Source: Escherichia phage kvi
Sequence record: MN850615.1
Direction: 5' to 3' (one strand)
Length of the DNA: 64,000 nt
The notes under the pieces were generated by a model. The model was not told where the DNA came from, did not search any database, and worked only from the letters and a program-made list of their open reading frames with translations. This document shows positions 5,728 through 44,690 of the stretch, in pieces (position 1 is the first letter of the stretch; each line of letters opens with the position of its first letter). Both the position numbers and the translations under genes were made by a program.

Positions 5728-5738
5728 GATAGATTTCA

Positions 5739-6953
5739 TTAAGCAGGATGCGTTTCACGAATGCGTAGAACTCGCTCTAACGTCTCTCGGTCCAGTTTAT
5801 GTAACTCTTTGGAATGATACATGAAACCATTGCGAGATTCCATGCAAGTGCAATCACTATATTTTTCTTCCGCTGCCGCGATTGTCTCCAGATCTTTGGC
5901 GTACTTGCTGGTTGAATAAACTTCTCGGTTACGCCACTCTAACCCAGCCTCATTGAATTTAACAATCTCGTCAAATACCCACCATCCAATGTAGATAAAT
6001 GAAGTTTTGCGCCACGGGATCGGGTGTACGTAACGAAACATTTTAACAACTTCCATTGAACATTTTCTACTTGTACTTGTTGCAACTTCTACTGTTTCAT
6101 CTTCGATCTGTTGATATAGTTTAGCAACACACCAGAATTTGGCTGTGTCATCGTAAGTAGCACTCTCTTTGAACAGATGACCGTCTGGAGTGATAGAAAA
6201 TCCTTCCAGTGCTTCGCCAACCTCACTACCGATCAGAGTCGGTGACATTTGCCCTTCGCGCTGCAAATACCAGTTATATTTGATCGTCAATTCAGGCATA
6301 CCGCTAGAATCGCCTACAATGTTCTCTGACACAACATAATTAAGTAAGATCTCATTACCTAGTGCCACGGTCTTTGATTCCACCACATCCTGATCTACGT
6401 TCATTGTTGCCAGCATGATTTTAGTCGATGCGCTAGCGGCTGAATCTTCCGACTCACCCCACACTTTTACAGTATACACGCCGTTTTTATCTGCTGTAAA
6501 TTCTTGGATCGTAATATCCTTTTTTGTGTCTATAACGTCATCGCCCTTACTCCAACTATAATGTAGTTCATAGTTGTCTGATGGAGTCTTCCCACCAGAA
6601 AATTTTACTGTTGCATGTAATTCTACGTTTGTTTGTGATGATACGTAGAAATGCTGCGGTTCGGTGATATTTACGATTAATTCAGCTTCTTCCATGAGGA
6701 AAACTTCAGATTCTACTGATGTCATCGTATCGGTATCCTGTACCGTTACTTTATAGCTACCCGCATTTTCACTTGTTGCGTCTGCTACAGTTAGCGTAGC
6801 TGTGCTATTTTCATGCGGTTGGTCGTCTTTTGTCCATGTATATGTCAAATTGCTGGGTAATGGTTCGTCACCCGCTACAGTCGCCGTTAAGGTGAAACCA
6901 TCTCCAGCAAGAAAACATCTTTTGTCAGATTTAATTGATACTGTGAAAGTCAT
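5739..6953 (-). CDS. hoc: Hoc, highly immunogenic outer capsid protein
   Basis: 404 aa; Ig-like repeats then C-terminal YVHPIPW..IGWWVFDEI..ESRNG motif as in recalled T4 Hoc. Confidence 0.85.
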   Translation of the reverse strand: MTFTVSIKSDKRCFLAGDGFTLTATVAGDEPLPSNLTYTWTKDDQPHENSTATLTVADATSENAGSYKVTVQDTDTMTSVESEVFLMEEAELIVNITEPQHFYVSSQTNVELHATVKFSGGKTPSDNYELHYSWSKGDDVIDTKKDITIQEFTADKNGVYTVKVWGESEDSAASASTKIMLATMNVDQDVVESKTVALGNEILLNYVVSENIVGDSSGMPELTIKYNWYLQREGQMSPTLIGSEVGEALEGFSITPDGHLFKESATYDDTAKFWCVAKLYQQIEDETVEVATSTSRKCSMEVVKMFRYVHPIPWRKTSFIYIGWWVFDEIVKFNEAGLEWRNREVYSTSKYAKDLETIAAAEEKYSDCTCMESRNGFMYHSKELHKLDRETLERVLRIRETHPA

Positions 6954-21241: not shown

Positions 21242-21454
21242 TTATAATGCACCATCGAGCAATTGCTCTAAGGTGTATCCTGAATAGTCTTTTTCAATAA
21301 GGGTATATTTTCCTACTCGTTTAATCCAGCCACGCATTTCAACGTATTCTGCGTAGTTGATGGTGCGAGTTGTTCCATCTTCCAGTAATGCAGTACCGAT
21401 TTCGTTAATGCGGTCATAAGTTACGTCGGTAATGATGATTTCGATGTTAGCCAT
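21242..21454 (-). CDS. Hypothetical protein
   Basis: 70 aa; AAGGAG SD; downstream of promoter at 21491. Confidence 0.5.
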   Translation of the reverse strand: MANIEIIITDVTYDRINEIGTALLEDGTTRTINYAEYVEMRGWIKRVGKYTLIEKDYSGYTLEQLLDGAL

Positions 21455-21490
21455 TTGATACTCCTTAGTAGTTCGTTTCGGTATGGGTGT

Positions 21491-21519
21491 ATTATGATAT
21501 ACACCATCTGTTATGTCAA
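21491..21519 (-). promoter_or_regulatory. Early promoter cassette (TTGACA-17-CATAAT)
   Basis: rc of TGTCAAC..ATTATG plus conserved leader CGAAACGAA..GGAG. Confidence 0.6.
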
Positions 21520-21525
21520 CAACTT

Positions 21526-21690
21526 TTAGAACATTTTTGAAATTAATTCTGCTTTGATTTCGCAGAGAACATCTAAAGATTTCTCGTCACCCGCTTTTGC
21601 TGCTTCTGCTTGCATTTTTGAAATGGCTTCAATGTCAGTGCAATTATAAGCCGCTTGAACTTTAGCGATTGCGATGATTAAGTGTTTCAT
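21526..21690 (-). CDS. Hypothetical small protein (54 aa)
   Basis: Not in track; AGGAGA SD; immediately downstream of promoter at 21723. Confidence 0.4.
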   Translation of the reverse strand: MKHLIIAIAKVQAAYNCTDIEAISKMQAEAAKAGDEKSLDVLCEIKAELISKMF

Positions 21691-21722
21691 GTTTGATTCT
21701 CCTTTCGTTTCGGTATGTGTGC

Positions 21723-21752
21723 ATTATGGGGGATCACCGATCCCCCTGTCAA
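21723..21752 (-). promoter_or_regulatory. Early promoter with palindromic spacer (PeSL-like)
   Basis: TTGACA-GGGGGATCGGTGATCCCC-CATAAT on - strand. Confidence 0.65.
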
Positions 21753-21759
21753 CAATTTT

Positions 21760-22278
21760 TTAGTTATTTTTTAATTGCTCATCTTGCAATAGGGCAATCA
21801 CATGCTGGCGATGTTCTTCCGATTGAGGCACACCGAAAAAGTTTGTTTTGTAGAAATACTCTAATCGGTCTTCTCGTGTGCTCTCTTCCATCATGATCGC
21901 GGGTAGTCCGAGATTTCTGAAACGTCGCTTTTCTGCTGGCGTAAAATCACTGTAATACAACATAGAATCATCATTACAAGCAATGCTAAACTCATCATTC
22001 ATAAAGGAGAATATTGCGTTTAAACGCTGTTTACCGTCCACGATTTCGATCTCATAGCGAGAGCCATCATCAATCTTAGCCATTGCGATAGCACCAACCG
22101 GAAAATCATTAATAAGGTTTTCGATAAACATACGTTTGTTTTCGGTGTCCCATACTAAAGGACGCTGATAATCTGGGTTCATGTTGATATAGCCATCTTC
22201 TAACCATGCATCATAAACAGAGATGACAAAGTTTTTAGTATTGGTATAGTAACGGCGTTTAGGCGTTAAACGGTTCAT
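21760..22278 (-). CDS. DUF262 / ParB-like (GmrSD N-terminal-type) domain protein
   Basis: 172 aa from ATG 22278; PDYQRPLVW and IVDGKQRLNAI match DUF262 signature; no nuclease domain. Confidence 0.6.
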   Translation of the reverse strand: MNRLTPKRRYYTNTKNFVISVYDAWLEDGYINMNPDYQRPLVWDTENKRMFIENLINDFPVGAIAMAKIDDGSRYEIEIVDGKQRLNAIFSFMNDEFSIACNDDSMLYYSDFTPAEKRRFRNLGLPAIMMEESTREDRLEYFYKTNFFGVPQSEEHRQHVIALLQDEQLKNN

Positions 22279-22279
22279 G

Positions 22280-22612
22280 TTATAGTCTCCTGAATGGATC
22301 ATCACGTAAATCAATATCTTTTAAGAACTCATCCCATGAATGCCGGATATTGTTCTTAATTCTCCAGATAAGCGCAGGGATTGAACGCTCTCCCATCTGG
22401 AAGTATGGATCATATGATCCGTATGCCCAATATGCTACTACAATTCCACAATCAGCGCAATAGTATTCTATTTCACTGGCTGGCGACCAAAGTCCATCAA
22501 TATGATCGGTGATCTTGCTTTCGATGTTATGGCTATGACAATCAGGGCAACGGATGCAATGACCTTGTTTATCGTAATTTGACGTTAGCGAATACTTAAA
22601 CAATCTCATCAT
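22280..22612 (-). CDS. Zinc-ribbon protein
   Basis: 110 aa; CIRCPDC ... CADCG; ATGATGA overlap with upstream gene. Confidence 0.55.
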   Translation of the reverse strand: MMRLFKYSLTSNYDKQGHCIRCPDCHSHNIESKITDHIDGLWSPASEIEYYCADCGIVVAYWAYGSYDPYFQMGERSIPALIWRIKNNIRHSWDEFLKDIDLRDDPFRRL

Positions 22613-23325
22613 AGATCCTTATTTGCTTCAAATACTGCCTTTGCGAATCCTCGCGGGGTAAGTGACCTGATAGTCTTTGTTTTCGTTCCTTTCCCGCCTA
22701 GCTTAGAATGCTGTTTACTGTACCCTTTATTAATCTGCAACGGTTTCTTTTCTGGCATTATAAAGCCTTGTCCGGTCCATAAGCAAGTCTTTTTCGGGTA
22801 CATATCACGGGCGGCGATATACTCAGGAAAAGTAGGATGTTTATCATCTTCCGGCAAATAACCGCCATATTCCCACGGGTGGAACATGTAATCAGGCTTA
22901 CGCCACATGCTAGAGATAACGCTTACAGGATTCTCTATCATGTAGGGAACTCCTAGCCATTCACCCAAATAAGCGGTTATTTTAGCTGCCCTTACATCAT
23001 GAACTTGAATCAATGGTCCTTGTTCTCGTTTCTTTCGTTCAAAGTGTGCAGCGCCACTAACAGCTAAATTGGTGCACGGTGGGAATGCAAAGATAATATC
23101 CGGTTTCCCCCATTCAAGGTCCATTGCTCTTTCCAGCCAGTTCAAATCAATCCAGGTGTTTACATAGGTAATGTTTGGATGTTCAAATCTGGTATTATAC
23201 TTTTTGTATGTGCCGTGGTCGCCATCATCAGCATTAAAGCAGATCACCTTATGACCTGCTTTAGCCCATTCTAGCCCCATTATCCCCGATCCGTCAAAGT
23301 TACAGAATATTAATTTTTGTTTCAT
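22609..23325 (-). CDS. Compact DNA C5-cytosine methyltransferase-like protein
   Basis: 238 aa; motif I FCNFDGSG, motif IV FPPCTN, motif VI MIENPV, C-terminal RSLTPRGFAKAV; very short variable region. Confidence 0.6.
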   Translation of the reverse strand: MKQKLIFCNFDGSGIMGLEWAKAGHKVICFNADDGDHGTYKKYNTRFEHPNITYVNTWIDLNWLERAMDLEWGKPDIIFAFPPCTNLAVSGAAHFERKKREQGPLIQVHDVRAAKITAYLGEWLGVPYMIENPVSVISSMWRKPDYMFHPWEYGGYLPEDDKHPTFPEYIAARDMYPKKTCLWTGQGFIMPEKKPLQINKGYSKQHSKLGGKGTKTKTIRSLTPRGFAKAVFEANKDL

Positions 23326-23567
23326 ATACGCCCCTTTAATCCAACACAGATTTTAGAAGGTTCTTTGCCGTGCCACATTAAGTAAAGTCCGTTAATGCGG
23401 CCTTGTTTTGTATATGATTCTTTTCTGATCTTCTTATAGTGTCGTGTTTCCTCAACTGATTGTTTAGAATACCAATCATAAAGGAAGAGGCACAAAGGCC
23501 AACCATTAGCGGCCTTAATGCAGTTATTAAGAAATTCCTTATTGCGTTTAATTAATTTTCTTTTCAC
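23322..23567 (-). CDS. Hypothetical protein (GTG start, translationally coupled)
   Basis: 81 aa; GTGA overlap with upstream stop. Confidence 0.4.
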   Translation of the reverse strand: MKRKLIKRNKEFLNNCIKAANGWPLCLFLYDWYSKQSVEETRHYKKIRKESYTKQGRINGLYLMWHGKEPSKICVGLKGRI

Positions 23568-23815
23568 GCTGCCCCCATTGGTTTGATAGTAACAGAATCT
23601 AAAAGACCTTTGTTAGCCAGTTCGCGGCAAGTTTTCAGATCCGCAACTTCCCAGCCAGCCGCAATCAGGTTATCAATGAGGCTGTTAGCAACTTCTTCGC
23701 TCATGAAAGAGCACTGTTTGCCGATGGTGTAGCGTACACGCTGTAATTTCAGTTTACGGAAGCCTTTAACGTTCAGGTCTTTAGCGATTTTCTTTGCGGT
23801 TTCGATGTTAGCCAT
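23564..23815 (-). CDS. Hypothetical protein (first gene of 5-gene operon)
   Basis: 83 aa; AGGAGA SD; preceded by promoter at 23856. Confidence 0.5.
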   Translation of the reverse strand: MANIETAKKIAKDLNVKGFRKLKLQRVRYTIGKQCSFMSEEVANSLIDNLIAAGWEVADLKTCRELANKGLLDSVTIKPMGAA

Positions 23816-23855
23816 TGTTTGATTCTCCTAAGTGGTATCTCGTCTTGATGGTTGT

Positions 23856-23884
23856 ATTGTAGGGGAGTTATCCTCCCCTGTCAA
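23856..23884 (-). promoter_or_regulatory. Early promoter with palindromic spacer
   Basis: TTGACA-GGGGAGGATAACTCCCC-TACAAT. Confidence 0.6.
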
Positions 23885-23898
23885 TACTTTTTATAAAA

Positions 23899-24066
23899 TT
23901 ATTTGTTAATTTCTGGTGCGTTGCTAGGATAGTAACCTTCTTTAACACCCAGATATTTTGCAACCATTCCTACAATCTTCTGTGCTACTACAATGTCAAA
24001 TTTCAGATAATCTTCGCCGTGGGTTTCAATGATATATGCTTCACATGCTGCTTTAGTCTCGAACAT
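23899..24066 (-). CDS. Hypothetical 55-aa protein, paralog A
   Basis: MFETKAACEAYIIETHGEDYLKFDIVVAQK...; near-identical to 27180..27347. Confidence 0.45.
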   Translation of the reverse strand: MFETKAACEAYIIETHGEDYLKFDIVVAQKIVGMVAKYLGVKEGYYPSNAPEINK

Positions 24067-24099
24067 TTTGATTCTCCTATTTCGTTTCGGTATGTGTGT

Positions 24100-24128
24100 A
24101 TTATAGGGGATCTCCCGATCCCCGTCAA
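24100..24128 (-). promoter_or_regulatory. Early promoter with palindromic spacer
   Basis: TTGACG-GGGATCGGGAGATCCCC-TATAAT. Confidence 0.65.
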
Positions 24129-24142
24129 CAACTTTTTTAAAA

Positions 24143-24424
24143 TTATTCGTGATTAGTTTCGATGTTGTACATTTTGCACCAGTTCAGCCAATCGCCCAGA
24201 TCTTGATAGTTGATGCTTTTATCTGCTGCCATCGTTTTTGTCTTGATACCCATATGTGCGTTATGAGTAAGCATTTTTACAGTGAACTCAATTTTATCGC
24301 CTTTAGCTTTAACATCAACCAGTTTGGTCCACTGGCTACCAGCGCCGCGAATGTTCATACCAACGATGTTTCCGATGTATGCTTCTTTGTTTTTCAGGAT
24401 TTCGGTTGCTTTGATGAATTTCAT
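24143..24424 (-). CDS. Hypothetical protein
   Basis: 93 aa; conserved leader/SD. Confidence 0.55.
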   Translation of the reverse strand: MKFIKATEILKNKEAYIGNIVGMNIRGAGSQWTKLVDVKAKGDKIEFTVKMLTHNAHMGIKTKTMAADKSINYQDLGDWLNWCKMYNIETNHE

Positions 24425-24457
24425 TTTTGATTCTCCAGTTCGTTTCGGTATGTGTGT

Positions 24458-24486
24458 ATTATGCTATGTTCTTACTTTGGTGTCAA
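24458..24486 (-). promoter_or_regulatory. Early promoter (TTGACA-17-CATAAT)
   Basis: rc of TGTCAA..ATTATG with conserved leader. Confidence 0.6.
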
Positions 24487-24494
24487 CAACTTTT

Positions 24495-24764
24495 TTAGAT
24501 ATTTTCAGAAATAAATTTTAAAACTTGACGTAAATGTTTCTCATCTTTGATAGACGCCGGAAGTTCTTCTTTTACTTCCTGTGCAAGATAGATATTTCCG
24601 TTCCAAGTGAAAGATCCGTCTTCGTTTACGCGATAGCTGAACATCCACTCGCAATCATTTTCGATTTCATATACACACAGAAGGGTGTAATCGTTAAAGC
24701 TATTGATTTCAAGGTCGAAGCCGTGACGTTTTGCAAAGTTGGTAGTGGTTTTAGTCAGCGCCAT
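24495..24764 (-). CDS. Hypothetical protein
   Basis: 89 aa; AGGAGA SD. Confidence 0.55.
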   Translation of the reverse strand: MALTKTTTNFAKRHGFDLEINSFNDYTLLCVYEIENDCEWMFSYRVNEDGSFTWNGNIYLAQEVKEELPASIKDEKHLRQVLKFISENI

Positions 24765-24804
24765 TGTTTGATTCTCCTAAGTGGTATCTCGTTTCGATGG
24801 GTGT

Positions 24805-24833
24805 ATTATGCTATAGGCGTGATCTGGTGTCAA
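24805..24833 (-). promoter_or_regulatory. Early promoter (TTGACA-17-CATAAT)
   Basis: rc of TGTCAA..ATTATG. Confidence 0.6.
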
Positions 24834-24854
24834 TGTTTTTTTTAATTTTATGCA

Positions 24855-24881
24855 ATAAAAAAGCCGACGCTAAGGTCGGCT
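24855..24881 (-). terminator. Rho-independent terminator (- strand)
   Basis: AGCCGAC-GCTAAG-GTCGGCT followed on - strand by TTTTTTATT. Confidence 0.6.
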
Positions 24882-24938
24882 AATAAAATCATTTAGACAA
24901 ATAATCATTCTGCGCAATCCGGTCGGCGTATGCTGGTG

Positions 24939-25196
24939 TTATGTCAATCGCCAGCACTTTAACGCGTGCTTTCTTACGACCTGGTTTTCTCGTAACCAGT
25001 GCTCATGACCGTGAACATTTTTATACTGCGATGCTTCTTCGAAGGTACGGATCGGACCTGGGTAATCAGCGTAAAGGATCTCTAGATCTTCGGTGATGTA
25101 AAAATATACATCATAATGGCTGTTCTCTAGTTTAAGCAGAGAGTTGCGAAATTGTGGTAAATTCTCGCGGGTAAATTCAACTACAAGATTTTTCAT
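24939..25196 (-). CDS. HxHW-family small protein, apparently frameshifted/truncated
   Basis: 85 aa from ATG 25196; family motif HGHEHW present but conserved VLAIDI tail is in another frame ending at 24889. Confidence 0.4.
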   Translation of the reverse strand: MKNLVVEFTRENLPQFRNSLLKLENSHYDVYFYITEDLEILYADYPGPIRTFEEASQYKNVHGHEHWLRENQVVRKHALKCWRLT

Positions 25197-25219
25197 AGTG
25201 ATATCCTCATTCAGATAGA

Positions 25220-25243
25220 TTAAAAGGGGGGCGTTAATCCCCC
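25220..25243 (-). terminator. Terminator-like hairpin
   Basis: GGGGG-CGTTAAT-CCCCC with A/T flanks. Confidence 0.4.
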
Positions 25244-25248
25244 ATATA

Positions 25249-25536
25249 TTAAAACAGTCCTTCCTGTACACCGTAGTAGAGTTCGTCGCTGATAATTTCA
25301 TTAATGCGACGGTGTGCATATTCCTGATTTGCGAAGTTGTCAGCAAGTTCTACTTTAGTTTCGCCGTCATGAGTCCATTTAGTGATAACTTTACCATCTG
25401 CAAATTTGAAGTTGAACTCTTTAGCTACTGCATCGCGTACCAGACGTGCGAACTTGTTGTTACGGATTGCATTGTCTGTTTCGTTTGCAGCGTGAGCAAA
25501 TTTGTTAACTTTCAGAGTGATAGTAATGTATGCCAT
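25249..25536 (-). CDS. Hypothetical protein (AKEFN family)
   Basis: 95 aa; RLVRDAVAKEFN; paralog of 28564..28875. Confidence 0.55.
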   Translation of the reverse strand: MAYITITLKVNKFAHAANETDNAIRNNKFARLVRDAVAKEFNFKFADGKVITKWTHDGETKVELADNFANQEYAHRRINEIISDELYYGVQEGLF

Positions 25537-25582
25537 AATTTTATTCTCCTAGTTAGAAAGTGTATCTCGTTTCGATGGGGAT

Positions 25583-25611
25583 ATTATGCTATATCCCCGA
25601 TCCGGTGTCAA
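25583..25611 (-). promoter_or_regulatory. Early promoter (TTGACA-17-CATAAT)
   Basis: rc of TGTCAA..ATTATG. Confidence 0.6.
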
Positions 25612-25617
25612 CACTTT

Positions 25618-25896
25618 TTATAAAATAATTTTTTGATATTTTTCTATGATGTTCGTGTAAGTCACATCAACCGCTAGCACCGTTGCTTCGAATCCACCGT
25701 TTAGCCAATGGCTATGATCATGATCGTGAAAGAAACCTAGACCAGTACGAAGACCTTCTTTATATTCTGCGCGTACATTCAGTTTGTCGTCGATAAACAG
25801 ATAAAACCATGAATTTTTACTAGGATTGATGATACAACCTTTCAGATTAGGGAGAATATCACGACTAAGAATAAACTTATCACCTACTTTGAACAT
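25618..25896 (-). CDS. HxHW-family small protein
   Basis: 92 aa; FHDHDHSHW..VLAVDV. Confidence 0.5.
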   Translation of the reverse strand: MFKVGDKFILSRDILPNLKGCIINPSKNSWFYLFIDDKLNVRAEYKEGLRTGLGFFHDHDHSHWLNGGFEATVLAVDVTYTNIIEKYQKIIL

Positions 25897-25900
25897 AATA

Positions 25901-26221
25901 TTAGTCCTCACTTATAAGGTCAAACCAATTGTTTTTCGCATAATGCTTAATGCGTGCTTGATCTGCTTCCGCTGGTGATAGATTCCATGCAACCACTACA
26001 ACTTCTGACGCATCGTCATCCGTTTCTGATACCCAATGATTGTGATTCATACAGTTATTTGCTATCGAGTGAGCAAATGATTTCATCACTGGAGACGTAT
26101 AATCATAGTAACGGATTTTCAGATTTTCATCAACGTACAAATAGATCGTATAAGGTTTATATTCAGTAACCAGTAACAGACAGTTACGCAATTCTGGGAA
26201 AATCTTTTTAGTTAATTTCAT
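25901..26221 (-). CDS. HxHW-family small protein
   Basis: 106 aa; NHNHW..VVVVAWN; N-terminus similar to 24939 member. Confidence 0.5.
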   Translation of the reverse strand: MKLTKKIFPELRNCLLLVTEYKPYTIYLYVDENLKIRYYDYTSPVMKSFAHSIANNCMNHNHWVSETDDDASEVVVVAWNLSPAEADQARIKHYAKNNWFDLISED

Positions 26222-26222
26222 T

Positions 26223-26441
26223 TTATAATCCTCGGTCGCGGCTATAGTACACGGTACGCCATACAATTTCATGTTTCGTGTCGCTCCAGCACACGATCTC
26301 ATTTACTCTTAAATCTTTGTTATCAACAAAAGATGAACATTGTGACGCTTCTTTCATCATTTTATATGCTGTTTTCTCATCAAATACAGCACAGATTTCT
26401 TTATACACTCGATAATCTTTGAATTGACTCTGGATACCCAT
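26223..26441 (-). CDS. Hypothetical protein (paralog pair with 26401..26658)
   Basis: 72 aa from ATG 26441; FKDYRVYKEI..KMMKEASQC. Confidence 0.45.
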   Translation of the reverse strand: MGIQSQFKDYRVYKEICAVFDEKTAYKMMKEASQCSSFVDNKDLRVNEIVCWSDTKHEIVWRTVYYSRDRGL

Positions 26442-26658
26442 AATTAACACCATTCCAACCAATTGTTTTTGAGAAAACGTTTATCCACTGTTGAGTGTAG
26501 CATGTTTCTTTCCATGATACAATACGAGTAGAATAATGGTTTTTGTTTCCAGAAAAGGACGGGCATTTTGATGCATCTTCCATCATCTTTTCGGCGAACT
26601 CTGGTGCGTATACTCGCAGGATCTGTTGATATGCTTTGTATTCTTTAAATTTGCTCAT
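26401..26658 (-). CDS. Hypothetical protein (paralog pair)
   Basis: 85 aa; FKEYKAYQQI..KMMEDASKC; 3' end overlaps next gene in another frame. Confidence 0.45.
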   Translation of the reverse strand: MSKFKEYKAYQQILRVYAPEFAEKMMEDASKCPSFSGNKNHYSTRIVSWKETCYTQQWINVFSKTIGWNGVNYGYPESIQRLSSV

Positions 26659-26923
26659 AATCATTCACTACCTTATCAGCTTCTTTTGTTGTTTTTACAT
26701 CAACTGCGATAACTCGTAAATGTTCGTCATGGTTCCACCAGTGGTCATGAATATCAGCTTGTGATTTATCACCAAAGGAATCACGAATATCATTTTTACA
26801 TTTATAGCTAATGTGACCTTCATAGTCAACATAAAGGTAATTATCGAAAATCGGCGTTTTTAAGATCATACCGAAAAATCTTTCTTTGTGTGTCTTATCC
26901 AGCGTTGCAGTAATTCGCATCAT
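26645..26923 (-). CDS. HxHW-family small protein
   Basis: 92 aa; IHDHWWNHDEHLRVIAVDV. Confidence 0.5.
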   Translation of the reverse strand: MMRITATLDKTHKERFFGMILKTPIFDNYLYVDYEGHISYKCKNDIRDSFGDKSQADIHDHWWNHDEHLRVIAVDVKTTKEADKVVNDYEQI

Positions 26924-26935
26924 AATATATTCCTC

Positions 26936-27115
26936 TTAGAAAGGGATGGTCATTTCTTGAGCTTGTACATTCTCGTTAGGATTAAACTTCATCCAACCGA
27001 TATTGTCTACCAGCATATGCACATTTTTATCATATCCTACGTGGGTAGTCAATACTGTATGTGCTTTACCTTCAATGATGAGTTCCATGTACTTCTGAAC
27101 TTCGATAGCTTTCAT
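26936..27115 (-). CDS. Hypothetical small protein (59 aa)
   Basis: Not in track; conserved leader; downstream of promoter at 27148. Confidence 0.4.
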   Translation of the reverse strand: MKAIEVQKYMELIIEGKAHTVLTTHVGYDKNVHMLVDNIGWMKFNPNENVQAQEMTIPF

Positions 27116-27147
27116 TTTGATTCTCCGTTTGTTGTCTTGATGGGAGT

Positions 27148-27176
27148 ATCTTACTACTCCCTTTAATCATTGTCAA
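27148..27176 (-). promoter_or_regulatory. Early promoter variant (TTGACA-17-TAAGAT) with hairpin over -10
   Basis: GGGAGTAGTAAGATACTCCC palindrome overlaps -10. Confidence 0.5.
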
Positions 27177-27179
27177 CTA

Positions 27180-27347
27180 TTATTTGTTAATTTCTGGTGC
27201 GTTGCTCGGATAGTAACCTTCTTTAACACCAAGATATTTTGCAACCATTCCGGTGATCTTCTGTGCTACTACGATATCGAATTTCAGGTAGTCTTCACCG
27301 TGGTTTGCTACAATGTACGCTTCGCATTCTGCTTTAGTCTGGAACAT
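27180..27347 (-). CDS. Hypothetical 55-aa protein, paralog B
   Basis: MFQTKAECEAYIVANHGEDYLKFDIVVAQK...; duplicate of 23899..24066. Confidence 0.45.
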   Translation of the reverse strand: MFQTKAECEAYIVANHGEDYLKFDIVVAQKITGMVAKYLGVKEGYYPSNAPEINK

Positions 27348-27381
27348 TTTTGATTCTCCTATATCTCGTTGGTATGTGTGC

Positions 27382-27410
27382 ATTATAGGGGATCGGTGAT
27401 CCCCTGTCAA
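27382..27410 (-). promoter_or_regulatory. Early promoter with palindromic spacer
   Basis: TTGACA-GGGGATCACCGATCCCC-TATAAT. Confidence 0.65.
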
Positions 27411-27415
27411 CAACT

Positions 27416-27709
27416 TTATAATGCTTTATATGCGTATTTCATAAATTTGTCTGCCACTTCATTGGCATGTTCAGATTCTACGCCTGATTCGAGAACAATA
27501 GCTAGGTCGGTTTCGTCATTCCCGCCGTACCAATGATTTGATGTTCGATTTTTTTCAATTGGAAATTGGTCACTTTTATCTGTGCGACAAAATACATCTA
27601 AATGCTCGTCGATGTAAAAGATCCAATCTTCATAAAGAATAACGGTATTAGAAAGATTTTTATTGCCTTCAACGAAAGGTTCGGCTACAAACAAATTAGT
27701 ATGTTCCAT
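27416..27709 (-). CDS. HxHW-family-like small protein
   Basis: 97 aa from ATG 27709; YIDEHLD..NHWYGG..LAIVLESGV; GAGGA SD. Confidence 0.45.
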   Translation of the reverse strand: MEHTNLFVAEPFVEGNKNLSNTVILYEDWIFYIDEHLDVFCRTDKSDQFPIEKNRTSNHWYGGNDETDLAIVLESGVESEHANEVADKFMKYAYKAL

Positions 27710-27725
27710 AGTATTTTCCTCAAAA

Positions 27726-27917
27726 TTATACAGCTTCGTAAACTTCCCAATGTCCAACACCAGCACGCTTAACGAAAAGGTTTTCTTTGATGTTATTCAT
27801 AAACGTCTGGATGGATTTAATGCGATTTGAAGGTTTCCAGTCTTCGTTGGCATTGCGTCGATACATCATAACATTACCAGTTCGCTTATATTCAGCAACC
27901 ATTTTAAGACCACACAT
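27726..27917 (-). CDS. Hypothetical protein
   Basis: 63 aa; GAGGA SD. Confidence 0.45.
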   Translation of the reverse strand: MCGLKMVAEYKRTGNVMMYRRNANEDWKPSNRIKSIQTFMNNIKENLFVKRAGVGHWEVYEAV

Positions 27918-27966
27918 AATATTATCCTCAATTTGTGGGAGAGTATTACCCCTCCCAATGATTGTT

Positions 27967-27995
27967 ATGTTATATCACACAAAATGGCGTGTCAA
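27967..27995 (-). promoter_or_regulatory. Putative early promoter (TTGACA-17-TAACAT)
   Basis: -35 lies within the 3' end of the upstream gene. Confidence 0.4.
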
Positions 27996-28295
27996 TGCTT
28001 CTTTTGCGGTTCCGCTAAGACTTTCGATCTCGCCTGGCATAACATCAACCGCCAGAACTTCTACAACATCCTCGGACCCTAACCAGTGAGTATGACCTTT
28101 GTAGAACTTAATAACCAGACTACCTTCCTCGTCCCATTTAACGCTATCGCTAGCCCACCACACATCACCGTCGATAAAGTTGATGTAAAGCACACTACGC
28201 CACATTGAATTAATTACTTTCAATACTGCGCCTTTCATCTCTTCCACGGTATGGTCTTCCATTTTGAAGACCTCACCTACCTGAACTTTTGCCAT
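27975..28295 (-). CDS. HxHW-family small protein
   Basis: 106 aa; GHTHWLGSEDVVEVLAVDV; GAGGTG SD. Confidence 0.5.
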   Translation of the reverse strand: MAKVQVGEVFKMEDHTVEEMKGAVLKVINSMWRSVLYINFIDGDVWWASDSVKWDEEGSLVIKFYKGHTHWLGSEDVVEVLAVDVMPGEIESLSGTAKEALTRHFV

Positions 28296-28312
28296 TTAGT
28301 CACCTCTCTTTA

Positions 28313-28492
28313 TTACATAACAATCACGCCAGCCGTTGAAAGTTGATGTTTCAACTGAGCATTTTCTGCTACCGTCAAATCAATGATTTCTTGTGACGCT
28401 GCAATCATATAGCCATTGGTGATATTGTTTTGCATCAGTTCAATGGTTTCTTCGTTGTAGCGGATTTTAGCGATGATTTCGTTGAAGTTCAT
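28313..28492 (-). CDS. Hypothetical small protein (59 aa)
   Basis: True ATG at 28492; track ORF is extended upstream through the promoter palindrome. Confidence 0.45.
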   Translation of the reverse strand: MNFNEIIAKIRYNEETIELMQNNITNGYMIAASQEIIDLTVAENAQLKHQLSTAGVIVM

Positions 28493-28526
28493 AATTGATT
28501 CTCCTAGTTCGTTTCGGTATGTGTGT

Positions 28527-28555
28527 AGTATAGGGGATCGGTGATCCCCTGTCAA
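28527..28555 (-). promoter_or_regulatory. Early promoter with palindromic spacer
   Basis: TTGACA-GGGGATCACCGATCCCC-TATACT. Confidence 0.6.
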
Positions 28556-28563
28556 CAACTTTT

Positions 28564-28875
28564 TTAAAGTTTTTCCATGATAACGGTCATAATTACATCT
28601 TCTGCGCGAGTGGTTAGATTATCAGCGTCAGCATGTGGGCGGTTGGTTGTTACAGAGATAACACCGTTGCGCACTGGTTTGATGTTGATATCAAGATGAT
28701 CCGCGAAACGTTCGCCAGTTACAGAATGAATTTTGGTGTTAAATTCTTTTGCCAGTGCCTTGCGAACTTCACGAATCAGGGTAGCGTTTTTCAGTTGGTT
28801 CTCCGCGCTCATGGTCTTCTGGGTGTTCATGGTTCCGTCGAAGTCAATCATTGGCAGCGTTACGATGTATTTCAT
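28564..28875 (-). CDS. Hypothetical protein (AKEFN family)
   Basis: 103 aa from ATG 28875; LIREVRKALAKEFN. Confidence 0.5.
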   Translation of the reverse strand: MKYIVTLPMIDFDGTMNTQKTMSAENQLKNATLIREVRKALAKEFNTKIHSVTGERFADHLDINIKPVRNGVISVTTNRPHADADNLTTRAEDVIMTVIMEKL

Positions 28876-28920
28876 TTTTGATTCTCCGTTTAAGAAAGTG
28901 TGTTTCGTTTTGATGTGTGT

Positions 28921-28949
28921 AGTATAGGGGATCACCGATCCCCTGTCAA
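28921..28949 (-). promoter_or_regulatory. Early promoter with palindromic spacer
   Basis: TTGACA-GGGGATCGGTGATCCCC-TATACT (loop inverted relative to 28527 copy). Confidence 0.6.
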
Positions 28950-28961
28950 CAACTTTTTGAA

Positions 28962-29438
28962 TTATTTTTCTTGATGCTCGCGATCGTACTTTTCGAAATA
29001 AAATTCTACTGGCTGGTCGTGGATTGACAGCAAGCCAAAGCGTTTAGCCGCTCGCAATCCCATATTGCGCTGAATGTACTTCTGGAAGTTCTCGCGTATA
29101 CACTTACGCCAGGATTCTAAGCCCATGCAGCTTTTATAAAGATTGCATTGCACACATGCCGGATTCATGTTATCAAGTATATCATGCTCCGGTTTATGCA
29201 TTCCTACAACCTTATACTTCCACGATCCATCATCATTACGGGCAATTCGTCCATTTTCATCATAGACAACCTTTGAGCGTCGTAATACTGGTTTGATATG
29301 GTCTGCGTGCCAGCGATCCCCTAGTTCCTCGCCACAATAGGCACAACGTCCACCGTATTTCATTTTCAGGATCTGACGTTGCTCTTTCTTTGACAATTTT
29401 TTAGGTTTAGGGGCTTTCGCCCCTTCATTATCACACAT
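28962..29438 (-). CDS. HNH endonuclease
   Basis: 158 aa; CAYCGE..WHADHIKPV..NMNPACVQCN; start overlaps ligase stop by 8 nt. Confidence 0.8.
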   Translation of the reverse strand: MCDNEGAKAPKPKKLSKKEQRQILKMKYGGRCAYCGEELGDRWHADHIKPVLRRSKVVYDENGRIARNDDGSWKYKVVGMHKPEHDILDNMNPACVQCNLYKSCMGLESWRKCIRENFQKYIQRNMGLRAAKRFGLLSIHDQPVEFYFEKYDREHQEK

Positions 29439-36349: not shown

Positions 36350-36748
36350 TTAACTTTCCAGAATATCGCGAGCTTCGTTACGCTCCTTGATGATTTTCAG
36401 GACAAATTCCAGTTTTTCTTTGTTTAGTGTTCCGTTTTCCATTGCTTCTTTGACGGTAAACACTCCGCCACCTTGACCGTATACAGTGACAGTGATTTCA
36501 CCTAACATCGTGGTATGAAAACCGCCAATTTTCGGTGATTCGAAAGAAACAATTACCTCGCGGACAGTATTACCGTCGTTGATTTCTGAGAGGGTAATGT
36601 CGTTTTTGTAGGCGGTTGCTTTAACCATACGGATCAGCATAGTCTGATCTGGGGAGATGGTCATTTTGTCCATTGCATGTTGCAATGCAGCGTAACCGAA
36701 AACTTTAACGAAGTCCAGAACGTCTTTGCGAGTTTGAAATTTAATCAT
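36350..36748 (-). CDS. Hypothetical protein
   Basis: 132 aa; downstream of promoter at 36782. Confidence 0.55.
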   Translation of the reverse strand: MIKFQTRKDVLDFVKVFGYAALQHAMDKMTISPDQTMLIRMVKATAYKNDITLSEINDGNTVREVIVSFESPKIGGFHTTMLGEITVTVYGQGGGVFTVKEAMENGTLNKEKLEFVLKIIKERNEARDILES

Positions 36749-36781
36749 CTTGATACTCCTTAGTTGTTTTGGTATGGGAGT

Positions 36782-36810
36782 ATCTTACTACTCCCGTGAT
36801 ATGCTGTCAA
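36782..36810 (-). promoter_or_regulatory. Early promoter variant (TTGACA-17-TAAGAT) with hairpin over -10
   Basis: Same GGGAGTAGTAAGATACTCCC element as at 27148. Confidence 0.5.
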
Positions 36811-36818
36811 CTGCTTTT

Positions 36819-36968
36819 TTATGCAACCGCAAACATCAACATTTGAACATTCTTGGCTGTCTGGCTTTCAAAGTTCTGACATTCTTTGATAATGTCCTCT
36901 ACTTTCTCGCCGGAGATCTCCGCGTAAGTTTCGATTGCCATTTTCAGTACCGCGTCAAAGTTGTTCAT
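36819..36968 (-). CDS. Hypothetical small protein (49 aa)
   Basis: Not in track; conserved leader/SD. Confidence 0.4.
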   Translation of the reverse strand: MNNFDAVLKMAIETYAEISGEKVEDIIKECQNFESQTAKNVQMLMFAVA

Positions 36969-37006
36969 TTGATTCTCCTTAAAGTGTATTTCGTTTCGAT
37001 GGGGGT

Positions 37007-37035
37007 ATATTAATACCCCCGTTATTCAGTGTCAA
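37007..37035 (-). promoter_or_regulatory. Early promoter variant with hairpin over -10
   Basis: TTGACA then GGGGTATTAATATACCCCC palindrome. Confidence 0.45.
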
Positions 37036-37254
37036 CTACTTTTTAATGACAATTTCGAATTTTGCTACCTTTCGTCCTCGTTTATTGAAAGCAACCCACG
37101 GACGGTTTTCAATATAGAACAATTCTTCGCCAATAATGAATACTGGCTGATTGTAAAGGCGACCCATCAGGTCACGCTGGCGAATGGTAGTAGATTCGTA
37201 TACTTCGCCTACTACAAAGTGTTTGCTGATAGAGTCGGTGCAAGTAAATTTCAT
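37036..37254 (-). CDS. Hypothetical protein
   Basis: 72 aa. Confidence 0.5.
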   Translation of the reverse strand: MKFTCTDSISKHFVVGEVYESTTIRQRDLMGRLYNQPVFIIGEELFYIENRPWVAFNKRGRKVAKFEIVIKK

Positions 37255-37283
37255 TTTGATTCTCCTTTGTTTCTTGGTGGGGT

Positions 37284-37313
37284 ATATTACTACCCCCCGT
37301 TATTCAGTGTCAA
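37284..37313 (-). promoter_or_regulatory. Early promoter variant with hairpin over -10
   Basis: TTGACA-18-TAATAT, GGGGGGTAGTAATATACCCC. Confidence 0.45.
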
Positions 37314-37320
37314 CTACTTT

Positions 37321-37539
37321 TTACTTGTTGTATTCATTCCACCATTGAGTGAGCTTATCAATTATTTTTGTGTTTCTATCCAACTTATCCCACCGTTTTC
37401 TAGGGTTTATCAACCGGAATAGGTAAGGTGTACTTGTTAAGTGAACTCGGTCAATGTAGTGATTGATGTACTGCTTTTCGATTCTAAGTTTCATCTTTTT
37501 ACGATGAAAATATGCAATGACTTGTTCTTCTGTTTCCAT
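37321..37539 (-). CDS. Hypothetical protein
   Basis: 72 aa. Confidence 0.5.
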   Translation of the reverse strand: METEEQVIAYFHRKKMKLRIEKQYINHYIDRVHLTSTPYLFRLINPRKRWDKLDRNTKIIDKLTQWWNEYNK

Positions 37540-37563
37540 ATGTTCCTCCGTTTCGATGTGCGT

Positions 37564-37592
37564 ATTATGCTATGGCAAGATCAGATTGTCAA
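37564..37592 (-). promoter_or_regulatory. Early promoter (TTGACA-17-CATAAT)
   Basis: rc of TGTCAA..ATTATG. Confidence 0.6.
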
Positions 37593-37603
37593 CACCCAAT
37601 AAC

Positions 37604-37628
37604 AAAAAAAGTCGCCACTATGGGCGAC
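37604..37628 (-). terminator. Rho-independent terminator
   Basis: GTCGCC-ACTATG-GGCGAC followed on - strand by TTTTTTT. Confidence 0.55.
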
Positions 37629-37640
37629 TTTGAACAAACA

Positions 37641-39630: not shown

Positions 39631-39797
39631 TATCCGACAACCTCAAAACATTTATCATCAGGAAGAATCGCCCATTCTACACCGTATTCATCCTCGACGT
39701 AGTAGCAAGTCCCATCATGTCGAGCATCATATTCATCACCAACAACAAAGCTATCAGCTAGTTCAAAATCTACAGCAACACATTTTAATTTGGTCAT
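39630..39797 (-). CDS. Hypothetical small protein (55 aa)
   Basis: True ATG at 39797 downstream of promoter; track ORF extended upstream. Confidence 0.4.
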   Translation of the reverse strand: MTKLKCVAVDFELADSFVVGDEYDARHDGTCYYVEDEYGVEWAILPDDKCFEVVG

Positions 39798-39828
39798 AAT
39801 AAAATCCTCACTTGTTTTTGATGGTTGT

Positions 39829-39857
39829 ATTATAGCGGGGATTTCTCCCCGCGTCAA
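39829..39857 (-). promoter_or_regulatory. Early promoter with palindromic spacer
   Basis: TTGACG-CGGGGAGAAATCCCCGC-TATAAT. Confidence 0.6.
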
Positions 39858-39865
39858 CACTTATT

Positions 39866-42109
39866 TTACAGCTTGCAAGATGAGCACTCGCTAGAGTCTT
39901 CCGTACCATCTGCACCGTCGCGAACGTTCGCATAATACAGGGTTTTCAGACCGTAATATTGAGCAAACAACATATCATCTAAAACATCAGCAATATCGAC
40001 TTTACCCGTCTTATAAGTGCTTGGATCGTAGGATGTGTTGGAACTAATCGCCTGATCTACAAACTTCTGCATGATCGCTGCCAGTGTCAGATAAGGCTTG
40101 TTACCTTTCTTGATCAGTGTCCAAAGCAGGTCAATAACATCAGCATTATTCTCTACGTTCGGAATAACCTGATTAAATTGCCCTTCTTTCGATCCTTTAA
40201 CCGATACAATACCGCGAGGCGGTTCAATACCGTTTGTGCTGTTAGATACCTGAGAAGACGACTCACAAGGCATCAGAGCCGAAAGCGTACTGTTACGAAT
40301 GCCATATTTTTTCAGGTCTTCGCGCAGTTCTTCCCAATCCATCTCATATACCGGATCAACCAGTTCATCTACTGTCTTTTTGTACCAGTCGATAGGCAGT
40401 TCACCGCGTCCATAACGTGTTTCGTGCATCAGTTCGCAAGCACCCTTCTCTTTAGCCAGTTGCACACTAGCCTTAATCAGAGCATATTGCAAGCGTTCAA
40501 ACGTTTTATGCGTAAACTCGTTAGCGTCTTCATATGTGAAGAAATTATCCGCGAGATACGATGCAAAGTTAGTCACCCCAACACCCAGAGAGCGACGTTT
40601 TTTGGATGTCAGAGCTTGCTCTACAGGATAATCCTGGTAATCTAACAGGTTGTCAAGTGCACGCACCATAACCATAGCAATGCGTTCTACTTCTTCCATA
40701 TTTTCGATATCAAAGTTTCCTAAAACATATGCTGCCAAAGTACATAGGCTGATCTCTGAATCATCACGACCCATCGGTTTTGTAGGCAGAGCAATTTCAC
40801 AACACAGGTTGGATTGTTTAATCGGTGCTACATTACGAATAAACGCCCCGTGATTGTTCATGTTGTCTGTGAACGTTGGGTAGATTCGACCAGTGTTAAA
40901 ACGTTCAATTGCCACCGCTAAAAACAGGTCTTCGGCTTTAACACGAGTTTTACGAACACTCGGATCTTTTTCCAGTTTTTCGTAAAGCTGGCGGAAACCT
41001 TCCTCATCTCGGAAGTATAGATCCCACAACAAGCCACCTGCAACATCTGGACTAAACAGAGTAATGTAATCCCGTTTAAGGAATCGCTCTACCATCAGGT
41101 TATTAATCTGTACGCCGTAATCAAGATGACGAATGCGGTTATCTTCCACCCCCTTATTGTTCTTTAACACAATCAGACTTTCAAACTCTAAATGCCACAT
41201 TGGGTAATAGAGAGTCGCCGCCCCGCCACGAATACCGCCTTGTGAGCATGACTTAACGGCAGTCTGAAAATGTTTCCAGAATGGGATAACGCCAGTATGA
41301 CGAACTTCACCATGCCCGATCTTAGATCCTTCCGCGCGAATCATACCAGCATTGATACCGATACCAGCACGCTTGCTAATATACTTGATGATTGCATTTG
41401 CTGTTTCGTTGATGCCCTGCAATGAGTCATCACTTTCAATCACCACACACGAACTAAATTGGCGTGTTGGGGTACGCACACCAGCCATAATCGGAGTAGG
41501 CAGAGATATTTGCTTATTCGCAACAGCATTATAAAAATCAATCACATGTTCAAGTCGATTTTCTGTCTCTTCTTGATGCAAGCACATACCGATCAGCATA
41601 TACGCAAATTGCGGTGTTTCGATGATTTTCTTAGTGCTGCGATCCTGAACAAGATATTTCTCTTTTAACTGCATAGCACCAGCATAGGTCATTTTAAAAT
41701 CAAGTTTATGGTCGATGAATTTCTCCAGATATTCCACTTCTTCACGGGAATACTTTTGCAGAATTTCGCGATCATATTTTCCGGTTGCAATATTACGCTC
41801 AATATGGCTGTAAAAATCAATCGGTTGGAATTGACCGTATACTGATTTGCGAAGCGCGAACATTGCAAGGTTACTTGCTACATATTGATAATCGGGTGTT
41901 TCTACAGTAATGTTATCTGCGGCGACCTTAATCAATACTTTCTGGATATCATTGGTAGACATACCTTCTGTCAGAAGTGGTTCAACCATATCAAACAATT
42001 CATATGGATCAACGTTATGACCTTCGGCTGCCGCTTCCAGAATTTTCATTACTTTTTCTTTTTCAAACGGAACAGTCAGACCGGAAGACTTAACAACATT
42101 TTTAATCAT
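39866..42109 (-). CDS. nrdA: Ribonucleotide reductase alpha subunit
   Basis: 747 aa; ATP-cone N-terminus; class Ia catalytic region. Confidence 0.95.
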   Translation of the reverse strand: MIKNVVKSSGLTVPFEKEKVMKILEAAAEGHNVDPYELFDMVEPLLTEGMSTNDIQKVLIKVAADNITVETPDYQYVASNLAMFALRKSVYGQFQPIDFYSHIERNIATGKYDREILQKYSREEVEYLEKFIDHKLDFKMTYAGAMQLKEKYLVQDRSTKKIIETPQFAYMLIGMCLHQEETENRLEHVIDFYNAVANKQISLPTPIMAGVRTPTRQFSSCVVIESDDSLQGINETANAIIKYISKRAGIGINAGMIRAEGSKIGHGEVRHTGVIPFWKHFQTAVKSCSQGGIRGGAATLYYPMWHLEFESLIVLKNNKGVEDNRIRHLDYGVQINNLMVERFLKRDYITLFSPDVAGGLLWDLYFRDEEGFRQLYEKLEKDPSVRKTRVKAEDLFLAVAIERFNTGRIYPTFTDNMNNHGAFIRNVAPIKQSNLCCEIALPTKPMGRDDSEISLCTLAAYVLGNFDIENMEEVERIAMVMVRALDNLLDYQDYPVEQALTSKKRRSLGVGVTNFASYLADNFFTYEDANEFTHKTFERLQYALIKASVQLAKEKGACELMHETRYGRGELPIDWYKKTVDELVDPVYEMDWEELREDLKKYGIRNSTLSALMPCESSSQVSNSTNGIEPPRGIVSVKGSKEGQFNQVIPNVENNADVIDLLWTLIKKGNKPYLTLAAIMQKFVDQAISSNTSYDPSTYKTGKVDIADVLDDMLFAQYYGLKTLYYANVRDGADGTEDSSECSSCKL

Positions 42110-44329: not shown

Positions 44330-44659
44330 TCAAATCAGTTTGAAATAGTTTTCGTTTACATTTTCTTCTGTGATTGCTGTCTTAAATTCTTGACCGTTAT
44401 CCGGTGTGATGAAATAACGGTCAGAATAATCACGAAAACGTTTTAAGTGAGATACCCCAACATTAACACCATGTTCCCAAAAACGAAAGGTAATCATTTT
44501 TGGTTCATATCGATAGTCGCTGGTTAACACAGTACCATCACCGCGACGGGCTTCATAAACCGTAATACATTCACGATTAGCGGCTTTAAGGCATTCTTCA
44601 ATAGTGCCGCACGAGATAATACTTACTTTTTCATCTACGATTTGTTCTACAGTCCACAT
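44330..44659 (-). CDS. Hypothetical protein
   Basis: 109 aa; downstream of promoter at 44691. Confidence 0.5.
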   Translation of the reverse strand: MWTVEQIVDEKVSIISCGTIEECLKAANRECITVYEARRGDGTVLTSDYRYEPKMITFRFWEHGVNVGVSHLKRFRDYSDRYFITPDNGQEFKTAITEENVNENYFKLI

Positions 44660-44690
44660 AATATAATCCTCTCTTTGTTTTGATGTTTGT

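Follow-up and report, generated by a model that had tools for sequence, protein, structure and literature searches.

Promoter-Early Stem-Loop Cassettes and Their Loop Variants in a Hyperplastic Region of Escherichia Phage kvi

Genomic Context and Identity of the Repeated Cassettes

We analyzed a stretch of 64,000 nucleotides (nt) of the genome of Escherichia phage kvi (MN850615.1; the whole stretch is referred to below as the window), in particular its positions 21491–28949. Region 21400–29000 encodes on the minus strand a run of small genes, many of which stand behind a common repeated block. This block, which we call a cassette, combines an early-type promoter, in most copies a hairpin, a conserved leader, a Shine–Dalgarno (SD) sequence, and a start codon. 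The cassettes are, with little doubt, the promoter-early stem-loops (PeSLs) of RB49/phi1-type T4-like phages. A likeness to these elements had been noticed in an earlier sequence-only reading of the same DNA and was borne out here: the genome is of the RB49 type, and the region corresponds to a block rich in PeSLs.

Alignments place the window in the genus Krischvirus, among RB49/phi1-like coliphages. Region 21491–28949 aligns along its whole length, at 93–98% identity, with over 35 Krischvirus genomes, among them RB49, phi1, GEC-3S, JSE, and FL37; the window has 97–99% identity to FL37, TB34, and SAP. The closest relatives in sub-region 27100–29000 are TB34 (OX001802.1) and SAP (OZ034687.1), with 99.3% identity. 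Region 21491–28949 aligns to the block between alt and the DNA ligase gene gp30, i.e., to open reading frames ORF185–ORF212 of phi1/RB49. This is hyperplastic region HPR3, the block in which PeSLs were defined. Promoters are annotated at the orthologous intergenic positions in the record of GEC-3S. In gene content the isolate is phi1-like, without ORF192 and ORF211; this content and its loop states form a combination of its own.

PeSLs were described as early promoters with a sigma-70 consensus, an AT-rich upstream stretch, and an SD sequence and start codon on the 3' side (Arbiol, Comeau, Kutateladze, Adamia, and Krisch 2010, PMC2839356). Their stem-loop, often of the polyG/polyC kind, lies between -35 and -10, over either of these two boxes, upstream of -35, or downstream of -10; conservation spans about 100 bp. 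They are found upstream of ORFans, concentrated in hyperplastic regions, with 52 copies in phi1 and 51 in RB49 (PMC2839356). All of these features that can be read from sequence—promoter, AT-rich upstream stretch, stem-loop, SD sequence with start codon, and hyperplastic location upstream of ORFans—were found in the window. Compared with the phi1/RB49 PeSLs, the genus, the block (HPR3, ORF185–212), the architecture, and the sub-classes of hairpin position are the same, and nothing essential differs.

Orthology, as judged by the downstream gene, links cassettes of the window to PeSLs that have been tested for promoter activity, terminator activity, and mini-circles: cassette 27410 corresponds to PeSL206/205 and cassette 28949 to PeSL211/210. 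The PeSL206/205 promoter of phi1 yielded about 13,000 Miller units, and the stem-loop of PeSL211/210 cut downstream lacZ expression about as much as rrnB T1 (PMC2839356). Inverse polymerase chain reaction revealed mini-circles of ORF192 and ORF210, produced by recombination between flanking PeSLs (PMC2839356). The 5' ends of RB49 transcripts were mapped by Desplats et al. in 2002, as far as that work is related in PMC1524935. Thus, the cassettes are a re-identification of a published and partly characterized element, in the genus of its discovery and at loci already tested. Anatomy, orthology, and cassette-bounded insertions and deletions were derived here from sequence; promoter strength, terminator effect, and mini-circles are taken from the literature on the phi1/RB49 elements.

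PeSL-like motifs of other T4-like phages (T4/PST and KVP40/nt-1; Comeau et al. 2014, PMC4122927) are also composite terminator/promoter elements and exchange points of hyperplastic regions. However, they follow the early-promoter consensus of each phage, unlike the GGGGATC-N3-GATCCCC form of the window. This form was found only in Krischvirus-type coliphages at megablast sensitivity among 50,697 phage records.

Architecture of the Cassettes

Cassettes are named here by the first base of the -35 hexamer on the minus strand, where all of them lie. Their order is constant: an AT-rich stretch, TTGACA, 17–18 nt, a TATAAT-like -10 box, a conserved leader, GGAGAATCAAA, and ATG. The repeated block itself reads AAAAAGTTG, TTGACA, 17–18 nt, TATAAT/TATACT/CATAAT, ACACACAT(A)CCGAAACGA..., GGAGAATCAAAA, and ATG. 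A regular-expression scan identified 11 full cassettes in region 21491–28949 (28949, 28555, 27410, 27176, 25611, 24833, 24486, 24128, 23884, 21752, and 21519), and eight more were found elsewhere in the window (36810, 37035, 37312, 37592, 39857, 44718, 45101, and 5692). With at least 19 leftward cassettes in total, the count of at least 18 leftward promoters with leader and SD sequence proposed in the sequence-only reading was slightly exceeded. The positions that it had assigned to them (27148, 36782, 37007, 37284, 5665, 23856, 24100, 37564, 39829, 44691, 45074, 21491, and 28949) each fell on the last base of a -10 box or the first base of a -35 box. Every cassette of the region has as its 3' end a start codon (ATG) belonging to one of the mechanically listed ORFs.

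The sequence TTGACA-N16-18-TATAAT, matched at 11 or more of 12 positions, occurs in the window 29 times on the minus strand and once on the plus strand, while first-order Markov random sequences gave an expectation of ~2.8 for both strands together. Ten of the 11 cassettes of the region match at 11–12 of the 12 promoter positions, and cassette 27176 matches at 10; a second, independent promoter scan concurred on the ten best sites of the region. The 25 nt upstream of -35 are 75% AT, compared with 60% in the window, and the stop codon of the upstream gene lies inside this AT-rich stretch. A nhmmer profile built from ten cassettes recovered 17 copies at E < 0.01, all on the minus strand. No Rfam family was found anywhere in the window at gathering thresholds, which sets the conserved leader apart from known RNA elements.

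Hairpins of -9 to -19 kcal/mol are predicted in 13 of the 19 cassettes, either in the spacer between -35 and -10 (seven cassettes) or around -10 (six cassettes). The spacer class begins with cassette 28949 (28873–28961), upstream of ORF210, which reads TTGACA-GGGGATCGGTGATCCCC-TATACT with a 48-nt leader and GGAGAATCAAAAATG; its hairpin folds at -13.0 kcal/mol (z -2.9). Cassette 28555 (28490–28568), upstream of ORF209, has the spacer GGGGATCACCGATCCCC, the loop of which is opposite to that of the neighboring cassette. Cassette 27410 (27345–27421), upstream of ORF205, has a perfect TTGACA-17-TATAAT promoter with the loop ACC. Cassette 24128 (24064–24141), upstream of ORF191, reads TTGACG-GGGATCGGGAGATCCCC-TATAAT, and cassette 21752 (21688–21762), upstream of ORF186, has an 18-nt spacer, GGGGGATC-GGT-GATCCCCC. 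Two further spacer hairpins contain no GATC: GGGGAG-GATAA-CTCCCC in cassette 23884 (23813–23897), upstream of ORF190, and CGGGGAG-AAAT-CCCCG in cassette 39857 (39795–39868).

The palindrome GGGGATC-N3-GATCCCC, which the sequence-only reading had reported in several spacers, was found in four exact copies (21729, 27388, 28533, and 28927) and in none of 100 shuffles. A fifth copy, in cassette 24128, is register-shifted (GGGATC-GGGA-GATCCC). Both loop orientations described in that reading are present in the window: on the sense (minus) strand the loop is GGT in cassettes 28949 and 21752, and ACC in cassettes 28555 and 27410.

The hairpin encloses the -10 box in cassette 27176 (27113–27180; GGGAGTA/TACTCCC around TAAGAT), upstream of ORF204, in cassette 25611 (25534–25624; GGGGATAT/ATATCCCC around CATAAT), upstream of ORF198, and in cassette 21519 (21452–21532; GGTGTAT/ATACACC), upstream of ORF185. 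It does so also in each of the three successive cassettes 36810, 37035, and 37312 (36746–37322). Four hairpins over -10 had been proposed earlier, and these (cassettes 27176, 36810, 37035, and 37312) indeed fold at -12 to -15 kcal/mol, with z values of -3 to -4.5. The same architecture was also seen at 19105.

Canonical terminators with a U-run lie 10–30 nt upstream of -35 in four cassettes. Cassette 24833 (24762–24881), upstream of ORF194, has no in-promoter hairpin; its intrinsic terminator (24862–24881; AGCCGAC...GTCGGCT + T6) is located 28 nt upstream of -35. Intrinsic terminators also precede cassette 37592 (37537–37630; AGTCGCCCATAGTGGCGACT + T7), cassette 5692 (5614–5740; GCCATCC-TTCG-GGGTGGC + T6), and cassette 45101 (GCCTCCC-TTCG-GGGAGGC + T6), which together with cassette 44718 occupies positions 44657–45150. 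Cassette 24486 (24422–24498), upstream of ORF193, consists of promoter, leader, and SD sequence only.

A weaker promoter-like site, TTGACA-17-TAACAT (10 of 12 positions), was found at 27925–27995 on the minus strand. A hairpin, GGGAG-GGGTAATACT-CTCCC, comes after it, immediately ahead of the start of ORF207. Site and hairpin may represent a degenerate PeSL whose stem-loop lies downstream of -10; no promoter is annotated at this site in GEC-3S.

Gene-Content Differences among Relatives

The orthologous block was compared in 16 relatives, with cassettes assigned by the downstream coding sequence. Of six gene-content differences, four have their breakpoints inside cassettes or within about 5 nt of them; in this comparison, which the earlier reading had proposed, cassette boundaries coincide with breakpoints. 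ORF186 is absent in KFS-EC, ECD7, and PHB13, and both breakpoints of the deletion lie inside cassettes. In KFS-EC and PHB13, a chimeric cassette stands before ORF185: a palindromic spacer of the 21752 type with a GCAC/GCAA discriminator is joined to a ...GAACTACTAAGGAGTATCAAATG leader of the 21519 type. ORF210 is absent in AV108, SFHK24, and Skers, again with both breakpoints in cassettes, and in AV108 the GGT loop of cassette 28949 is joined to the leader of cassette 28555. The AV108 junction is the one that would remain after recombination of the two PeSLs on either side, by which the ORF210 mini-circle has been proposed to be excised. In RB49 and FL38, an insertion of 531–537 bp containing ORF192 is located at the upstream edge of cassette 24128. 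The natural deletions of ORF186 and ORF210 and the insertion of ORF192 agree with the published PeSL model.

One duplication was found within the block itself. ORF205 (27180–27347) and ORF191 (23899–24066), both on the minus strand, are paralogs of 55 aa each, and their nucleotide homology extends from AAAGTTGTTGAC of the cassette to the stop codon. The homology is bounded by cassette and stop codon, which indicates that the unit of duplication was one cassette together with one gene; this likewise fits the PeSL model. Other small ORFs of the block share, by eye, a ...HW...(V/I)(L/I)AVDV motif and may form a family.

Proposed Mode of Action

Each cassette would be a unit of about 65–95 bp, the AT-rich stretch upstream of -35 being similar to an UP element. 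Its near-consensus sigma-70 promoter would be read by unmodified host RNA polymerase immediately after infection. The hairpin lies upstream of the transcription start of its own cassette and is therefore present only in RNA coming from the upstream gene, where it would attenuate or end read-through and insulate each small gene as an early transcription unit of its own. The strong GGAG SD sequence and ATG would then drive translation of a small gene of unknown function. About 20 near-identical copies in one orientation provide homology for T4-type recombination; through this homology, the highly recombinogenic replication of T4-type phages would delete, duplicate, or insert modules of a cassette plus its gene.

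Several observations count against this scheme. Cassettes 24486 and 44718 do not contain any hairpin. Rho-independent terminators likewise have their G/C-rich hairpin at the upstream gene's 3' end, and four cassettes have a textbook terminator; however, the U-run that follows the stem of such terminators is missing from the in-promoter hairpins of the window, where the first 8 nt behind the stem contain only three T. These hairpins are followed instead by the -10 hexamer and ACACAC, and a terminator scan called none of them on the sense strand. Because the U-run is missing, sequence by itself leaves the lowering of downstream expression by these hairpins unexplained. Two gene-content differences also do not fit cassette breakpoints: the loss of ORF189.1 in E26 is 250–480 nt from any cassette, and the extra ORF195/196 block of RB49 is 32 nt away, adjoining the terminator upstream of cassette 24833.

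Stem Sequences and GATC Sites

The hairpin could alternatively act at the level of DNA: instead of forming an RNA hairpin, the inverted repeat would be bound as an operator by a dimeric protein of phage or host, or would form a cruciform and thereby tune the geometry of -35 and -10. Perfect inverted repeats of 7–8 bp placed exactly between the promoter hexamers would suit such a role, as would the absence of the hairpin from the cassette's own transcript. We regard it as very unlikely. For a stable cruciform to extrude, arms of 7 bp are short. The stem sequences vary among cassettes and orthologs, but compensatory and G.U-type changes preserve the pairing, which speaks against a sequence-specific operator. 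The position of the hairpin varies as well—in the spacer, over -10, or upstream as a canonical terminator—and this is easier to reconcile with an RNA read-through signal than with promoter geometry. In addition, the isolated stem-loop of phi1 lowered downstream lacZ expression behind a foreign promoter (PMC2839356).

The changes that preserve pairing were found at several orthologous sites. At site 28949, eight of 14 genomes have GGGGATCACGTATCCCC, in which one GATC is gone and a 6-bp stem is retained. At site 28555, the GATC stem is swapped for a non-GATC hairpin, GGGGAGGTTAAACTCCCC, in seven of 17 genomes. Stem variants with G.U-compatible changes are present in RB49 (GGGGGTCACCGATCCCC) and phi1 (GGGGTCGGGAGATCCCC), relatives have the GATC-losing variant GGGGGTC... 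at an orthologous site, and a T-A pair is replaced by a G-C pair in a compensatory change among orthologous stems. To judge by these stems, pairing, i.e., structure, is conserved, and not the stem sequence.

The sequence-only reading had laid emphasis on the two Dam sites (GATC) of each palindromic spacer. Under this explanation, paired spacer GATCs would tie early promoter strength to host or phage adenine methylation, for instance by distinguishing incoming from replicated DNA. Dam could act on some Krischvirus DNA, since that of TB34 has canonical, unmodified bases. A 2026 paper reported canonical cytosine in TB34 DNA and glucosylated hydroxymethylcytosine in SAP, which is 99.96% identical, by a pathway not established; the modification state of the isolate matters for any methylation hypothesis.

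The emphasis on Dam sites was not supported, however. A perfect hairpin is self-complementary apart from its loop, and GATC is itself a palindrome; a GATC in one arm thus forces a second in the other, and the pairing of the sites is automatic. GATC is common in the window and not enriched, with 356 observed and 339 expected occurrences (Markov estimate, ratio 1.05). Relatives drop one GATC or swap in a non-GATC hairpin at orthologous sites with the stem retained, as described above. The GATCs in the non-hairpin spacers of cassettes 25611 and 24833 vary freely among relatives, and the spacer of most cassettes does not contain any. Because of these statistics, and because GATC is not protected at orthologous cassettes while pairing is, Dam sensitivity of the promoters is highly improbable, and Dam control was rejected as the main explanation. 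The GATC pairs are most probably incidental to one stem variant.

Loop Orientation

The PeSL papers (PMC2839356, PMC4122927) mention neither GATC/Dam nor loop orientation. ACC and GGT are exact reverse complements, and the stems around them are unchanged. At each of five orthologous sites, both orientations were found, in different genomes. At the ORF205 site, RB49 (GGT) and KFS-EC (ACC) differ by one other mismatch in 400 nt, and the window and RB49 by two other differences; ungapped comparison of flanks is inflated by indels at several sites, and only pairs with few mismatches were used. A three-base change to the exact reverse complement indicates at least one true inversion. We infer that the two forms arose by loop inversion of a perfect hairpin at least once, and that the inverted loop then spread or recurred among cassettes.

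Over all fetched loci, the loops were GGT (26), ACC (20), GGGA (20), GGC (5), ATC (5), GCC (4), ACA (2), and GCA, TGT, and AGT (1 each), with three reverse-complement pairs among them (ACC/GGT, GCC/GGC, and ACA/TGT). In the whole phage collection, 53 records contained the GGT form (91 places) and 45 the ACC form (54 places); every record bears a coliphage or Shigella-phage name. It had been reasoned earlier that the palindrome should recur in the remainder of the genome, and relatives do carry copies outside the equivalent of the window, for example in another small-gene block of Makalu_001, in whose record the hairpin is annotated as a terminator. Scans of IMG/VR and of metagenomes for the palindromic promoter recovered 7 stretches in 2 contigs, and 12 stretches, respectively. 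Leaders and downstream genes of these contigs match Krischvirus cassettes, and the scans added new loop variants and no new host range. GGC loops were found at two sites of IMG/VR contig 3300045988_033703 (L003/L007) and GCC loops at two sites of ERZ1034939 NODE-12 (L025/L034). Such rare loops, common to different sites of one genome in one orientation, appear to be a signature of concerted evolution among paralogous cassettes.

The flips may instead be recurrent in-place inversions, produced by intrastrand template switching or cruciform processing, in which case the hairpins would be active mutational or recombinational hot spots rather than passive homology. Such inversion is a documented class of mutation in RNA hairpins: template switching turns the loop into its exact reverse complement and leaves the stem unchanged (Monttinen and Loytynoja 2022, PMC8794818), as in the cassettes. 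The flips at five orthologous sites, the near-identity of the flanks in RB49 and KFS-EC, and the two further reverse-complement pairs are in line with this explanation. Here, however, unlike in the documented inversions, most genomes hold several paralogous cassettes of both orientations, which are possible gene-conversion donors across identical flanks, so exchange between copies explains the flips equally well. In AV108, the ORF210 deletion left a recombinant at site 28555, and this accounts for its apparent flip there; the rare loops shared within one genome point to exchange between cassettes, and the 4-nt loop GGGA, with its 20 copies, was never seen flipped. The excess of reverse-complement pairs was not used as proof of recurrent inversion, because two extra pairs are expected by chance in about 23% of cases, given single-step mutants (hypergeometric estimate, p about 0.23). 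We consider recurrent in-place inversion possible but doubtful; in-place inversion and exchange between paralogous cassettes are not separable on the present sequences.

Shine–Dalgarno Block

The block GGAGAATCAAA occurs in ten copies on the minus strand and none on the plus strand, compared with 0.03 expected, and always 10–13 nt before the ATG of a cassette. SD block sites on the minus strand are 21702, 23828, 24077, 24436, 24777, 25549, 27126, 27359, 28887, 36978, and 37265. The block matches the consensus of strong RegB/S1 sites of T4, GG*AGRAYARAA (Uzan and Miller 2010, PMC3014915), at 10 of 11 positions, with a C at position 8 where the consensus has A; all 11 positions agree in the copy at 25549, GGAGAATAAAA. 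This consensus comes from T4, and RegB of RB49 is divergent. The RegB that RB49 encodes is reported to be active, and the SD sequence of its regB gene to be cleaved in vivo (PMC3014915). RegB/S1 sites of T4 are likewise located in intergenic translation-initiation regions of early genes. The likeness is previously unreported, RegB not being mentioned in the PeSL paper (PMC2839356). GGAGAATCAAA may thus be a RegB/S1 cleavage site for the shut-off of early mRNA, which we present as a lead and not as a result.

A wider proposal combines this lead with the loop flips: the loops would flip recurrently in place, through template switching or cruciform processing, during T4-type recombination-dependent replication, the hairpin being the initiating lesion for gene shuffling, and GGAGAATCAAA would be a RegB/S1 site. 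We find the combination slightly less probable still than in-place inversion taken by itself. If true, the cassette would be complete in itself: it would start transcription, insulate the gene, and drive translation, and the message would then be destroyed.

Neighboring Genes

A Pfam scan of ten ORFs of the block assigned a family to none of the six small genes directly behind cassettes. Matches were limited to ORF187, ORF188, and ORF212, none of them directly behind a cassette, and ORF189 had none. The gene at 28962–29438 on the minus strand (ORF212), next to the DNA ligase gene, borders the hyperplastic region; it has a weak HNH match (5e-06, 27 bits, with no single stretch passing) and is labelled HNH endonuclease in several relatives. 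RB49 has an additional ORF211 between ORF212 and ORF210, which is absent from the window.

The hyperplastic region also contains a three-gene block on the minus strand (22609–23325, 21760–22278, and 22280–22612). ORF189 is annotated in relatives as a C5 cytosine or DNA methyltransferase, ORF187 encodes a GmrSD_N/DUF262 domain (E 6.5e-20), and the zinc-ribbon match of ORF188 is weak, below the cutoff of Pfam. The ORF187/ORF188/ORF189 block may be a modification or anti-restriction module. GGCC is strongly depleted in the whole window (26 observed and 71.8 expected occurrences, ratio 0.36), which suggests avoidance of GGCC-specific restriction or a connection with the cytosine methyltransferase-like gene that the phage itself carries.

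Significance

Few concrete mechanisms have been proposed by which T4-type phages could swap small accessory genes without breakage of the genome, and PeSLs are one of them. Two points, both small, go beyond the PeSL papers: the loop flips between close relatives, and the likeness of the SD block to the RegB target. The window does not bring a new kind of element. Rather, some 60 Krischvirus genomes have become available, and in them the PeSL model, originally built on two genomes, is visible in nature: after the natural loss of ORF186 and of ORF210, chimeric cassettes remained, such as would result from recombination between flanking PeSLs.

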